From the NCBI GenBank assembly GCA_043826455.1, contig JBDRQD010000048.1, forward strand, positions 96,001 to 160,000: 64,000 bases of DNA. Reading direction: 5' to 3'. Source of the DNA: Candidatus Bathyarchaeota archaeon. Its GTDB lineage: Archaea; Thermoproteota; Bathyarchaeia; TCS64. The position numbers were made by a program. Shown here one piece after another: positions 39,001 to 42,000 of this stretch; positions within the stretch are counted from its first letter, which is position 1; each line of letters starts with the position of its first letter.

Positions 39001-42000
39001 ACACTCATATCTACTGATAGAAATGGTTAAGACGTTAAAAGATAAACCCGCCAACTTCATCCCCTTTGTACGCAAAACAGGGAGAAAGCTCAGAGATGCC
39101 ATCATAATGTTCATTGACACCAAAGAATCCACCCTGGTAATAGAGAAAGACGAGATATCTATGTTCAAAGGCAAAACATACGATAACAAGGTATCAGTAT
39201 GCATCGGCTCAATCAAAAGGATACTCAGAAAGAGACAGAATGAATTCATAATAGGCACAAACCACGACAAGACCGAGATATACATAGTAAGAATTTAGCC
39301 ACAATCCATCTCTTTTTAAGCACATAATACGCGCAGATGCGTAACCCCAAGTGGTTTACGTGACCTTTAGTACCTGTTTCTAGCCTATTCTAGGCATAAT
39401 AGGTTAATCTATACAGGGGCTCGATGATGTCTCTGAGCAATGCTGTGTATCTGCTAGGAACCTCAATTGGGACCGGCTTTGGCACTGGACGATGATAAAA
39501 GGGCGGCGGGCCCTCTGGCTTACTCCAGGGTGATCCAGCCCTTCTCTATGGCGGTGATGCCGGTGCGGGCCGCCTCTATTATGCCTATGTGCTTGACCTC
39601 CCTCATGAACTCGGTGATCTCGTTCACGGAGCCGGTGACCTCGGCTATTATGGTGTCCGGCTTTATGTCCAGTATCTGGCCCTTGTAGCGGTTGATGGTG
39701 GCCAGAGCCTCCTCCTGGGCCATGGGGTCAGCGGTGCTCAGCTTCACCAGGGCCAGGTCCCGCTGGACGGTGCGCAGCGGGTCCAGGCGCTTCACCTTGA
39801 TGACGTCCACCATCTTCTCTATCTGCTCGACGAGCTTGGTGATCTCGTGGGCGTCTCCGCGGACCGTGATGGTGATCCGGGTGGTGTCCACGTCCTCGCC
39901 GGCGATGGCGGTGATGCTGTGGATGTTGAAGCCCTTGCGCCTGAAGTTGTTGCTGATGTTGAAGAGCACGCCGGGCTTGTTCTCCACCATGAGGCTGATA
40001 ACGTTTAGGGGCGTCACGGTAGATCATCCGTCAATATGTCCTTTAAACCCATCCCTGGGGGGATCATGGGGTACACGTTCTCCTCGGGGTCTATGGGCAC
40101 CTCTATCACCGTGGTGTAGTCCGCCGCAGCGGCTCTCCTCAGCTCCGTGTTCAGCTCCTTCATGGTCTCCGTCTTGACGCCGTGGGCTCCGTAGGTCTTG
40201 ACAAGCTCCGTGAAGTCCAAGGTGTAATCCCTTTTCACGGCCGAGTATCTGCCCCCCATGAAGAGGCGCTGCCACTGGGCCACCATGCCCAGCATCCTGT
40301 TGTTGAGCACCACCACCACTATGGGCAGGTCCTCGTCCACGGCTACCGCCAGGTTGTTCTCCGTCATGGCGAAGCTGCCGTCCCCGCTTATGTTCAGCAC
40401 CACCCTGTCGGGTCTGGCCGCCTTGGCGCCTATGGCTGCGGGGGTCCCCCACCCCATGGTGCCCAGGCCGCCGGAGGTGAGGAAGGTGCCGGGCTCGTAG
40501 ACGTCGTAGTGGAGGGCCGCCAGCATCTGGTGCTGGCCCACGTCGGTGGTCACCAAGGCGTCCCCGGGGAGGGCGCGTCTGATGGCCTTGATGACTGCGG
40601 GACCCGTTATCCCGTTGGCGTACTCCGGCACCTCGTAGCTGCGCCTGAACTCCTCTATCTTGTGGGCCCACTCGCCGTTGCCTCCCTCGGCCCTCCTCAG
40701 GGCCCTGATCTGTTCCACCAGGCCCCTGATGCAGGGCTTGGCGTCTCCCCAGACCTTGATGACGCTCTCCACGTTCTTGTCTATCTCGCTGCGGTCAATG
40801 TCCATGTGGATGATCCTGGCGCCTGGGGCGAACCCGGCCAGGGCCCCGGTGGTCCTGTCACTGAACCTGCTGCCCACCACCAGGAGCACGTCCGCGTCGG
40901 GCACTAGGTAGTTGGCCTCCGCCCTGCCGTGCATCCCCAGGAGCCCCAGGCTCAGGGGGTGGTTGCTGGGTATGGAGCCCTTGCCCATGAGGCTGGTGGC
41001 CGTGGGCGCCATGAGCAGCTCAGCCAGCTCGGTCAGCTCCCTGCCTGCCCCGGCGCTCACCACCCCACCGCCCGCCACTATGACGGGCTGCCTGGCCTCA
41101 GAGAGTACCTTGGCCGCCCACTCCAGCTCCGTGGGGTCCGGCTGTAACCTGGGCCTGTAGCCGGGGAAACTCACCTCGGCGTCGAAGTCCATGTCCGCGG
41201 ACTCTGTGGTGACGTTCTTGGGCAAGTCCACCAGCACGGCCCCCTTCCTGCCCGTGTTAGCCACATACATGGCCGCCTTCACGGCCCAGGGTATGCGCCC
41301 GGGCTCCCTCACCTGGTGGTTCCACTTGGTGATGCTGGCGGTGACGCCGATGATGTCCACCTCCTGGAAGGCGTCGGTGCCCACCATGCTCATGCTCACC
41401 TGGCCTGTGAAGGCCACCAGGGGGCTGCTGTCCAGCTGGGCCGTGGCGACGCCTGTGACTATGTTGGTGGCGCCGGGTCCGCTGGTCACCTGGACCACGC
41501 CGGGCCGCCCGGAGGCCCTGGCGTAGCCGTCGGCCATGTGGGCGCTGCCCTGCTCGTGGACGCCCGGCACGTACCTCATGTCGGTGTTCAGCATCTCGTC
41601 GCATATGGGTATCAGGGCCGCGCCCGTGATACCGAATACGTGTGTAACTCCCTCCTTCTCCAGGGCCCTGACGTAGGCCCTGGCTCCTGTCATCTCAGTC
41701 ATGTTTGGCTGCCTCCCACTCCCGCCTCACCTTGAAGGGCTGGGCGGGCACGTTAGTAGAAGTTTTACGTTTGGTTTCTCTGCGGGGTCTACCTAAGAAT
41801 ACGATACCCCATTCAGCTCTGCCCCTCCGCTGGGGGCCCGACAAAACGATACCCCATTTTCAGTCTCCTCGTACCGTTCGTAATGTTGGATGAAGGCTCA
41901 CCTAATAAAAAGGTTGTCAGTAACGCTTGTTGCATACGAGCGGCTAGGGCGGGAATAGGGGCACAAACTTGTAGGTATCGCTGAAGTCTATGCGGTTCTC

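Follow-up and report, generated by a model that had tools for sequence, protein, structure and literature searches.

What are two very short reading frames doing, one behind the other, in front of each acetohydroxyacid synthase operon of an uncultured archaeon? The locus lies in a 64,000-nucleotide stretch of contig JBDRQD010000048.1 (the window, in what follows) of Candidatus Bathyarchaeota archaeon, from an uncultured group of sediment archaea, and the leaders of both operons, A (ilvB-ilvN) and B (ilvB-ilvN-ilvC), are on its minus strand. An earlier survey of the genome had described tandem upstream reading frames (uORFs) before each ilvB and read them as frameshift sensors; the uORFs are indeed present in both operons, on that strand and in the place it gave. 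The explanation we favour, to which we assign a probability of about 0.72, is that each unit of 42-45 nt is a starvation-sensing +1 frameshift cassette and that the units are wired in series.

The leader of operon A has a TATA-like box, TTTTTATT (41904..41911, minus strand, as are all features below), a putative promoter element; a TATA-like word was matched in 103 of the 109 leaders compared below, and in 86 of these it begins 50-54 nt 5' of the first ATG. The Shine–Dalgarno (SD) sequence of uORF1 is GAGGAG (41865..41870), and the 16S rRNA of this genome ends in GGATCACCTCCT. Reading ATG GGG TAT CGT TTT GTC and so on to TGA, uORF1 (41813..41857, ATG at 41857) encodes the peptide MGYRFVGPPAEGQS and holds an internal SD-like GGGGT, a putative P-site codon TTT (41845-41843) and a putative Val sensor codon GTC (41842-41840). 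Within it, folding and alignments point to a hairpin, GCCCCC/GGAGGGGC (41821..41837), whose 3' arm is the SD of uORF2. The stop of uORF1 adjoins the ATG of uORF2 directly, and the spacing of the two is 45. The second frame (41789..41812, ATG at 41812) reads ATG GGG TAT CGT ATT CTT AGG TAG and encodes MGYRILR, with ATT (41800-41798) as its putative P-site codon and CTT (41797-41795) as its putative Leu sensor codon; 3' of its stop, ACCCC (41784..41788) is predicted to form, together with that uORF's GGGGT, a second helix that would hide ATG2. Both uORFs share a +1 frame of 48 codons (41695..41841), open from the first site via the second, which ends in a TGA (41697-41695), so that it and ilvB (ATG at 41702) overlap by 8 nt. 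The SD of ilvB is GGGAGG (41712..41717). The gene itself, paralogue A (40014..41702), scores over the cut-off of TIGR00118 as the large subunit of a biosynthetic acetolactate synthase and falls in its own clade of the protein tree; ilvN, for the small subunit (39520..40017), scores over the cut-off of TIGR00119.

Operon B has the same plan. Its uORF1 (46654..46695, ATG at 46695) encodes MGNCFVNPRAEGA, beginning MGNCFV, with TTT-GTC as a putative Val site and a CCCCC/GGGGG hairpin, and its uORF2 (46627..46653, ATG at 46653) encodes MGYRFIIS, with TTT-ATT as a putative Ile site, at a spacing of 42. The shared +1 frame of 55 codons (46512..46679) has its stop, a TGA, at 46514, with the 8-nt overlap on the ilvB ATG, and ilvB paralogue B (44831-46519), ilvN (44345-44830) and ilvC (43346-44344), named after NCBIfam, make up the operon (43346..46519). 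For this site we considered, and rejected, a leaderless ORF in the +1 frame that would start at an ATG farther 5' (46724), since it is not conserved and contains a stop in one relative (G020).

The constancy of this geometry can be judged from 109 ilvB leaders of relatives, gathered by protein homology and including 102 intact uORF pairs. Left out of the set were L002, L123 and L197, whose start lies outside the locus, L028 and L132, which are short, and L093, L137-L142 and L144, which are from outside the order; seven full-length ilvB leaders outside the order have no fitting cassette. A tree built from the proteins of 77 of the 109 leaders (140 columns, midpoint root, not used for ordering events) separates paralogues A and B. 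An 18-nt IUPAC motif is present in 69 of 70 genomes of the family, with its reversed control nearly absent, and the cassette consensus is ATG-GGG-WAT-NNN-NTT-sensor. The +1 frame reaches the ilvB start (-10..+20) from the last site in 108 of the 109 leaders and from the first site in 107, the -1 frame in none, and the +1 frame is kept over 33 different distances (71-191 nt). In the spacers 3' of the last uORF we counted 3 stops in the +1 frame, as against 195 in the -1 frame, 121 in the zero frame and about 111 expected from dinucleotide shuffles; the loci are related, so no p-value is attached. The +1 stop has the 8-nt overlap with the ilvB start in 88/109 leaders, and the form ATGA on Met4 in 13 loci of changed frame. 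No depletion of Val, Ile or Leu codons was seen in the +1 frame.

The survey's finding of one +1 frame that runs from either site onto the ilvB start therefore holds, with a qualification to its claim that the frame is open from the first site in all loci (68 of 68): in G098 the frame is broken, and in G231 the first site's frame stops before site 2. A different exception is G026, whose second site has AGG, no start and no fusion to the first. The spacing, said always to be 42 or 45, is so in 100 of the 102 pairs (45 in 76, 42 in 24), the others being one of 39 and one of 75, and all are multiples of 3; the stop of uORF1 directly precedes ATG2 in most pairs, as had been claimed, with a gap of 0 nt in 76, of 3 nt in 19 and the frames fused in 7. 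A motif-first metagenome scan that allowed spacings of 38-48 nt gave only 42 (33 loci) and 45 (91 loci) in 124, and where the downstream gene could be identified the +1 frame lands on its start in 120 of 120 loci (110 ilvB, 10 ilvA-like) and the -1 frame in none, it being understood that the loci share kinship and that metagenome contigs may overlap the genome set. Two other searches were uninformative: 79 of the 80 matches listed in a related-locus search of genome contigs were bacterial ilvB by title, and the RNA libraries came down to three small-share sources, as contigs only. When these were compared with 39400-47000, one RNA-library contig from a relative (X3 record 24) was seen to cover the start of ilvB in operon B along with both uORFs; it may be DNA, and no start, strand or level is visible in it.

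Codon 6 is GTC, GTT, ATT, ATC, CTC or CTT at all 211 sites, and codon 5 depends on it. In a detection that demanded TT at its second and third positions, codon 5 is TTT at 79/79 Val and 83/83 Ile sites, whereas at the 49 Leu sites, where codon 6 is always CTC or CTT, it is ATT in 31, TTT in 14, GTT in 3 and CTT in 1. TTT makes up only 11% of the Phe codons of this genome. The P-site codon can re-pair at +1 throughout, as TTT at the 162 Val and Ile sites and as NTT followed by C at the 49 Leu sites, and the difference between the two groups is what would be expected if a G34 tRNA had to re-pair, UUG or UUA needing two Watson-Crick pairs and UUC pairing at the third position. Codon 7 is variable, and each uORF has one conserved sensor codon; conservation of the nucleotides exceeds that of the peptide, codon 4 encoding R, C, H, S or Y. 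At the level of sequence, the anatomy of the cassette, the conservation of frame, the stop-on-start geometry and the dependence between codons 5 and 6 are well established.

Because codon 5 varies as P-site re-pairing predicts, the second site of operon A is best read as a Leu sensor, and not as the Ile-Leu sensor of the survey, which was right about Ile in operon B. Operon A would then sense Val or Leu and operon B Val or Ile, neither of them all three, so the claim that shortage of any branched-chain amino acid induces each operon has to be given up; as ilvC stands in the Val-or-Ile operon, Leu shortage alone should not induce it. The reading of the tandems as OR gates would suit the mixed Val-Leu and Val-Ile pairs, but not the Ile-Ile tandems, which occur in 14 of the 109 ilvB leaders and, as had been reported, 5' of ilvA-like genes of relatives. 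Triples (Val-Leu-Ile in G036, Leu-Ile-Ile in G098) and single-ORF fusions of two sites also occur.

The case for an actual change of frame is made by a different gene. In this genome a cassette is fused in +1 to a gene of the LeuA/CimA synthase family (both of its paralogues here score best on the same subfamily model), so that the +1 frame is the gene itself, and there is no ATG, GTG or TTG before the catalytic DTTLRDG motif. Thirty such fusions were found in this genome and relatives across the class, 24 of them without a start codon between the shift site and the motif; two further fusions lie outside the class, where the other two of four matches lack a fitting layout and were taken for chance hits. 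The +1 fusion looks obligatory from its sequence and, since another start is usually lacking, the shift is very probably real; we have little doubt that ribosomes make it. Away from ilvB, matches of the Val type stood at valS in 38 of the 39 that were fetched, and those of the Ile type at the synthase, ilvA-like genes or ilvB, never at valS; eight weak or Leu/Val-type matches in other families have no fitting layout and were put down to chance. No cassette was found in this genome at ileS or leuS (assignments that we presume from sequence features), the second synthase, ilvD, the two class-IV aminotransferases or the ilvA-like gene of the window.

The cassettes could work as follows. A ribosome would initiate at uORF1 and bring codon 5 (NUU) into its P site, where pairing of GGGGU with the anti-SD of the 16S rRNA would probably hold it; GGGGT is conserved in the alignments and complementary to the 16S end, and in genus g9 the start has shifted by one codon, yet a GGAGTG/GAGGTG block has kept its spacing (5 sites). 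If charged tRNA for codon 6 were scarce, the ribosome would wait, the peptidyl-tRNA would slip +1 onto UUN, and the shifted ribosome would read on in the +1 frame, which is free of stops, past site 2 and terminate on the ilvB start, there to reinitiate and/or to keep the transcript covered against polar termination. That under-charging of tRNA is the inducing signal we consider quite probable. When Val-tRNA is plentiful, uORF1 would be completed, the hairpin hiding SD2 melted and translation reinitiated on ATG2, for a second test at uORF2, of Leu in operon A and of Ile in operon B; were both plentiful, the ribosome would be released with about 90-110 nt still to go to ilvB. The two shift probabilities would add up to the output, a response to Val OR Leu in ilvB-ilvN and to Val OR Ile in ilvB-ilvN-ilvC, and Ile-Ile pairs would act as amplifiers. 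What GGGGU does, and of what kind the off state of ilvB is, are matters that we infer. The model gives no account of how ilvB stays off, since opening its ribosome-binding site takes no more energy than at 250 control starts from the same genome (medians by GC bin of 6.1-10.6 kcal/mol, against 8.6-12.0 for the controls), and alignments and folding gave it no conserved pairing partner and no conserved alternative structure; a strong stem covers the ilvB SD at the operon A site only and is not conserved.

Serial loading of the two uORFs seems likely to us, and it is here that the hardiest rival, in itself unlikely, enters: the uORFs might be loaded independently, with an output that is still additive and a hairpin that merely stimulates frameshifting from the 3' side. 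The hairpin (MFE at most -6 kcal/mol) follows 99/102 non-last sites and 7/100 last sites, and it also lies 3' of the sensor in 38/40 single-site leaders of the valS type, which have no second uORF; holding SD2 is thus not its only role, and of the survey's claim that it does so, what stands is that the hairpin lies over the second SD. That SD is also a strong one, GGAGGGG. Against independent loading, every one of the 102 pairs has either a uORF1 stop that abuts ATG2 or a fusion of the two ORFs, a hairpin is dispensed with at last sites and in synthase fusions, and the start region of uORF2 is strongly occluded, being costlier to open than that of uORF1 in 94/98 pairs (16.1 vs 9.6 kcal/mol, in part a bias, since the sequence that was folded has uORF1 at its 5' end). 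Further evidence comes from leaders with a single Ile site, in 7 of 8 of which a decayed uORF1 retains its start, its hairpin and its stop on ATG2 (gap 0 or TAATG). The spacing is no multiple of 3 (41, 41, 44, 47) in 4 of 7 leaders with a decayed uORF1, as against 0/102 intact pairs; a uORF1 that has no slippery site, keeps its stop on ATG2 and often loses the 3n spacing supports loading in series. As for the second helix, CCC is found 18-42 nt from the last site in 88/109 leaders against a background of 26%, but it is also found in 13/30 synthase fusions and is therefore not specific; in 14 of 16 operon A leaders of genus g4 the change of codon 3 from TAT to AAT accompanies a T before the CCC, probably as one event.

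It is also possible, though rather improbable, that the shift occurs at a fixed rate which dampens or tunes the output of ilvB, valS and the synthase, with two copies adding flux and codon 6 being no sensor. The Ile-Ile tandems, which bring no new input, would be at home in such a scheme. It fails to explain, however, why codon 6 is limited to NTY codons for Val, Leu and Ile, why it goes with the gene that follows, being Val before valS and Ile before ilvA-like genes and the synthase, why mixed sensors occur only at the shared enzyme ilvB, and why the shiftier-looking TTT-C is not favoured at Leu sites.

We regard as very unlikely a stall at the sensor codon which switches RNA structure or termination in the manner of attenuation, the open +1 frame being incidental. 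Short leader ORFs with Val, Leu or Ile codons do precede ilvB in Actinobacteria, as described in the part of PMC1262725 that concerns them, and conserved helices are present in the leaders studied here. A stall could not yield the synthase, which lies in +1, and it would leave the scarcity of +1 stops, the stop-on-start geometry and the 3n spacing without explanation; the sensor codons are single, with no codon runs. A bacterial-type scan found no terminator-like site on the minus strand in 39300-47000, and T4 runs occur in only 19 of 109 spacers.

Direct initiation of the +1 ORF at the UUG within TTT-GTC, with GGGG as its SD, has very little to commend it: at Val sites a +1-frame TTG does lie 7 nt after GGGG, but the equivalent triplet is TTA at Ile sites and TTC at Leu sites, a start codon 3' of the site is lacking in 24 of the 30 synthase fusions, and ATG1 and its own SD are conserved; such initiation may occur as a leak at Val sites. 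Equally far-fetched is the idea that the repeats are bound by a regulator, as DNA or as RNA, or make up an RNA that binds tRNA in the manner of a T-box, with a GUC/CUC/AUY specifier, an idea which could draw on the excess of nucleotide over peptide conservation, on the closeness of 42 bp to four helical turns and on the resemblance of NNC specifier codons to those of T-boxes, but which founders on intact spacings that are all multiples of 3, with only dead units leaving 3n, on a fusion gene that requires a change of frame, and on Rfam, where no family reaches the gathering score in the window except two tRNAs and the site gives only a chance-level match. Transcriptional slippage (T runs only 2-4) and a -2 shift (no re-pairing at -2) were rejected by inspection.

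The starvation-sensing +1 cassette has features of several known systems. The SD-like block of bacterial prfB lies one codon nearer to the P site than GGGGU does here, which we counted against the model. As the section of PMC5009743 on prfB describes it, that gene likewise has a short zero-frame ORF, a +1 slip of the P-site tRNA onto UUN at a slow A site, a conserved 5' SD-like GGGG block and a feedback logic; UUU_U is a minor shift site there, and the synthase fusion has the same architecture. The A-site codon of prfB is UGA, whereas here it is a sense codon for Val, Leu or Ile at all 211 sites, the input would be aminoacyl-tRNA supply, the host is archaeal, the cassettes are stacked, and the new frame does not encode the product at ilvB and valS, where it would serve as a bridge to the start that follows. 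Hungry-codon +1 shifting (Gallant; Ty1 CUU_AGG) is similar in that a slow sense codon in the A site follows a slippery P-site codon (PMC5009743, in the portion on such shifts). In that same portion, the 2016 review knows of no functional starvation-specific product and calls a shift in the pheL uORF incidental (PMC5009743); here, by contrast, the geometry is conserved class-wide, 5' of the cognate biosynthesis and synthetase genes.

The leaders of ilvGMEDA and ilvBN in E. coli are ribosome-mediated attenuators, the ilvBN isozyme being under Val plus Leu control. T-box riboswitches, tandem ones included, bind uncharged tRNA without translation and have one specifier codon per unit. The actinobacterial ilvB leaders are like the present ones, as we interpret these, in that translation of a leader reads the branched-chain supply and controls acetohydroxyacid synthase, as set out in the pertinent part of PMC1262725, which also has T-boxes at ileS. 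Attenuators differ in their codon runs in one peptide and their terminator/antiterminator, where we find one codon per unit, a proposed frame change and no terminator. T-boxes share with the proposed sensors the regulon of synthetase and biosynthesis genes, the single specifier-like codon per unit, the single-base switch of specificity and the stackability; the units here are ORFs that are translated and constrained in frame, and no Rfam or T-box covariance model matches them. Archaeal termination-reinitiation offers a parallel for the junctions: overlaps or gaps in the range from -8 to +10 nt are taken to predict it (PMC10666635, in the passage on such overlaps), and at both junctions only a few nt separate a stop from the start that follows (-8, -4 and -1 overlaps, 0-3 nt gaps), as in archaeal coupling of this kind (PMC10666635, PMC12548453; see also PMC6728339). 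What is different is that the upstream ORF here would be conditional, translated on frameshift only, and that the coupling would also chain two sensors.

We lean clearly, if with some reserve, towards a general picture in which Bathyarchaeia-like archaea use modular hungry-codon +1 frameshift sensing: a cassette of 42-45 nt, its specificity reset by one base (GTY/CTY/ATY), would stand alone at valS and in the synthase fusion, and elsewhere be linked through termination-reinitiation to give OR gates of two or three inputs as well as Ile-Ile amplifiers. A 2021 review counts one proven programmed frameshift, a -1, in cellular archaeal genes (PMC8211752). The literature that we searched does not describe the present element, which may be listed in supplementary tables of predicted frameshifts. 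If the explanation is true, this would be, as far as reviews go, the first case of a cellular archaeal gene regulated by +1 frameshifting, one that is class-wide, has a clear physiological purpose and puts hungry codons to productive use. The system is short and comes with natural variants of every part, among them sensor swaps, fusions, triples and dead first units, and its one-base-programmable amino-acid sensor may be of use to synthetic biology. A further consequence is that the start annotated for an Ile/Leu pathway synthase is probably wrong in many genomes across the class. For the archaea themselves, amino-acid supply would be sensed through translation, in the role that attenuators and T-boxes fill in bacteria, and logic would be built by stacking recoding cassettes.

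Both acetolactate synthase operons of the window lie on the minus strand, ilvB-ilvN with its ilvB at 40014-41702 (operon A) and ilvB-ilvN-ilvC with its ilvB at 44831-46519 (operon B). Each is preceded by two copies of a short uORF cassette, ATG-GGG-WAT-NNN-NTT plus a sensor codon, at which a ribosome short of the charged codon-6 tRNA would slip on codon 5, shift +1 and read on to the ilvB start. In the leader of operon A the sequence has, in order, a TATA-like box (41911-41904, minus strand), a Shine-Dalgarno sequence (SD), uORF1 (ATG GGG TAT CGT TTT GTC, closed by TGA) and uORF2 (ATG GGG TAT CGT ATT CTT AGG TAG), which begins right at the end of uORF1. 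The two sites are 45 nt apart, and the +1 frame has no stop from the first via the second until a TGA in an 8-nt overlap with the ilvB ATG. The leader of operon B has an identical layout, with TTT GTC then TTT ATT at a spacing of 42 nt.

A few other features of this region were recorded. A short conserved word (GTACC, GTTACC or TACATCC) is present at 46720-46726 and about 41875-41880; in relatives it lies about 20 nt 5' of the first ATG, near the inferred transcript 5' end, and in part of the loci it is predicted to pair to the first-site GGGGUA or the first SD. Leaders of the operon B paralogue of ilvB in genus g1 carry a conserved GGGTAYCG about 40 nt 5' of the ilvB start (about 46547-46556 here), resembling a third motif copy without a start codon, in the +1 frame. 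Two similar minus-strand ORFs beginning MCQLAAY (33718-34761 and 37738-38769), by inspection N-terminal-Cys amidotransferase-like, flank an ilvA-like gene, and a DtxR/FeoA-like and FeoB-like pair occupies 30971-33671. In the 90% clusters of several window proteins, close homologues are filed in NCBI partly as Candidatus Bathyarchaeota archaeon, for which reason the host is taken to be Bathyarchaeia-like, and partly as Candidatus Desulfaltia sp., the latter probably a mislabelled bin.

The cassette also opens a LeuA/CimA-family synthase gene of the same genome (C57:59702, minus strand; L281:3188-4703), where the uORF MGYRFIS* is followed by the entire synthase (500 codons) in the +1 frame, and no ATG, GTG or TTG was found from the preceding in-frame stop to the catalytic DTTLRDG motif. 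ORFs named by inspection as leuC-, leuD- and leuB-like lie 3' of it. CimA is the archaeal entry enzyme to isoleucine (PMC12131731). Among 40 Ile-type motif regions taken from relatives there are 29 synthase fusions, 7 sites before ilvA-like genes, 3 ilvB or ilvB-like leaders and 1 misfit. Counting the genome's own, a start codon is absent from the shift site to DTTLRDG in 24 of the 30 fusions; some have in-frame starts further 5' at positions that are not conserved, and the synthase is likely mis-started in annotations. Thirty loci of the class keep the +1 fusion, as do two from beyond the class (L283, L284). The motif is present in 204/401 class genomes and 69/70 family genomes, where its reversed control hardly occurs, and in 4 of the 255 phylum genomes searched beyond the class, 2 of them with synthase fusions. 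Since the gene is conservedly split after six codons at one slippery word, a programmed +1 shift is the best explanation, and on these sequences the shift is very probably real.

Leaders of ilvB were gathered through protein homology, and 109 full leaders, taken from 72 genomes of the order, were analysed. All 109 have at least one site and 100 have two or three; the sensors are Val-Leu in 40 (every one before the operon A paralogue of ilvB), Val-Ile in 37, Ile-Ile in 14 and Leu-Ile in 7, with the rarer single Ile (8), single Val (1), Val-Leu-Ile (1) and Leu-Ile-Ile (1). The +1 frame reaches to within -10 to +20 of the ilvB start from the last site in 108/109 leaders, over 33 different distances of 71-191 nt, and the -1 frame does so in 0/109. 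In 13 loci, mostly of the operon A paralogue in genus g4, the phase differs and the +1 stop is an ATGA on Met4 instead. Stops in the spacers number 3 in the +1 frame, 195 in the -1 frame and 121 in the 0 frame, against about 111 expected from shuffles. The survey's finding had spacing always at 42 or 45 nt and the frame from the first site always open; both hold with few exceptions, as 102 pairs gave 45 nt (76), 42 (24), 39 (1) and 75 (1), and 107/109 first sites are in frame. A metagenome scan started from the motif, permitting 38-48 nt, gave only 42 or 45 nt among the at least 124 loci listed, and 120/120 with a recognisable downstream gene (105 distinct leaders) end on its start. Relatedness and partial overlap between the two sets mean that their counts are not independent trials. 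The pattern is broken in three loci (genomes G098, G231 and G026). In G098 the ilvB triple Leu-Ile-Ile (L168) has a broken frame and the valS leader (L214) lacks both the hairpin and a start at the +1 stop; both look decayed or mis-assembled.

Every site of the homology set has GTY, ATY or CTY as codon 6. At codon 5 all Val (79/79) and Ile (83/83) sites carry TTT, and the 49 Leu sites, across several genera, ATT, TTT, GTT or CTT; the metagenome set repeats this, plus one ATT-Phe variant. This fits the prediction from +1 re-pairing of a G34 tRNA, and the genome encodes tRNAs with GAA, GAU, GAC and GAG anticodons. At Val and Ile sites the post-slip codon, UUG or UUA, would leave a wobble mismatch, so that positions 1-2 would need pairing; at Leu sites UUC would pair at position 3, leaving position 1 free. 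Because the codon-5 variation matches that prediction, the ATT of the second operon A site would be a P-site codon, and of the Ile-Leu sensor proposed there only Leu is retained. A shift driven by scarcity of the charged codon-6 tRNA is likely. A single substitution would reset the sensor, since Val, Leu and Ile codons differ in the first base only, and sister species do differ (G040 against other g9; G279 against G034). In five loci of genus g9 (L130, L131, L133, L134, L149) one ORF holds both sites, and translation would begin a codon further on, at a GTG, yet a GGAGTG/GAGGTG block is spaced from the slippery codon as elsewhere, a hint that the GGGG acts as an internal SD and not as a Gly codon. 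ARAGORN also called a tRNA-Leu with an AAG anticodon beside the GAG one. This anticodon is unusual in archaea, and the call may be false or contamination (genome quality figure, 7% contamination).

Sensor identity tracks the gene. Besides ilvB, the genome has two further motif copies, at the synthase and at valS (C39:43633, minus strand; a single Val cassette with hairpin), plus one chance match within coding DNA; none was found at its ileS and leuS. Val-type matches off ilvB are valS in 38/39, one site apiece, and in these leaders (L201-L240) the +1 frame mostly stops on the valS start, through ATGA/TTGA or 8- to 17-nt overlaps. The Ile-Ile arrangement reported for ilvA of relatives was seen at threonine-dehydratase-like genes of genus g4 (L261-L266, L277 and 10 metagenome loci), spaced 42 nt and with the +1 stop in an 8-nt overlap with a TTG start; the ilvA-like gene of the window (35653-36612) is without a cassette.

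The tandem sites appear to be wired in series. As first noted, uORF1 mostly abuts the second ATG, with a gap of 0 nt in 76 of the 102 pairs, 3 nt in 19 and one shared ORF in 7. Seven of the eight single-Ile leaders retain a decayed uORF1 with start, hairpin and stop on the second ATG, four of them at 41, 41, 44 or 47 nt with a TAATG overlap; since decayed uORF1s can lose the 3n spacing yet keep the junction, the spacing would count only as long as site 1 can shift, and the junction regardless. A hairpin follows 99/102 non-last but 7/100 last sites. Its arm variants include CCCCC/GGGGG and CCCTC/GAGGG, as reported, and GCCGCC/GGTGGC, and its 3' arm is indeed the SD of uORF2. A purely SD-holding role is disfavoured because 38/40 single valS-type sites have it too; the hairpin may help the less favourable UUU-to-UUG slip, or may be left over from copying. 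A second helix is predicted between the last-site GGGGU and a CCC beyond that uORF's stop, and opening the start costs 16.1 kcal/mol at uORF2 vs 9.6 at uORF1. Serial loading of the uORFs is probable.

The start of ilvB, which has a good SD, is neither more occluded than 250 control starts nor provided with any conserved pairing partner that we could find, so ilvB may be kept off through polar termination of the spacer while that goes untranslated. Archaeal polarity is credited to FttA in two reviews (PMC12548453, PMC13681488). U-tracts are scarce in the spacers, and the +1 frame showed no avoidance of branched-chain codons.

Sensing of several inputs already occurs in bacterial attenuators and tandem riboswitches. 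Here each operon would be a two-input OR gate, A for Val or Leu and B for Val or Ile; the OR logic thus stands, but not induction by shortage of any branched-chain amino acid, the third input being absent, and only a leader of G036 has all three. The Ile-Ile pairs at g4 ilvB and ilvA-like genes read as amplifiers, not gates. We put the whole model, additive two-input response included, at a probability of roughly 0.7.

The cassette is a real, conserved translational control and apparently undescribed, with no published description found in the literature searched (subscription papers and supplements lay outside its scope). It resembles the prfB frameshift in mode of action, but prfB is defined by a stop codon at the shift (PMC5009743), and the cassette has a sense codon instead. 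It shares its purpose with ilv attenuators and T-boxes (PMC1262725), but no codon runs, terminators or Rfam folds like theirs were found. The 2016 review (PMC5009743) knows of no productive hungry-codon shift and a 2021 archaeal review (PMC8211752) of one proven case, a -1. The tandem layout is one use of a broader cassette, as the survey's finding had supposed, the same cassette standing singly at valS and the synthase; the proposed mechanism is built from known parts.
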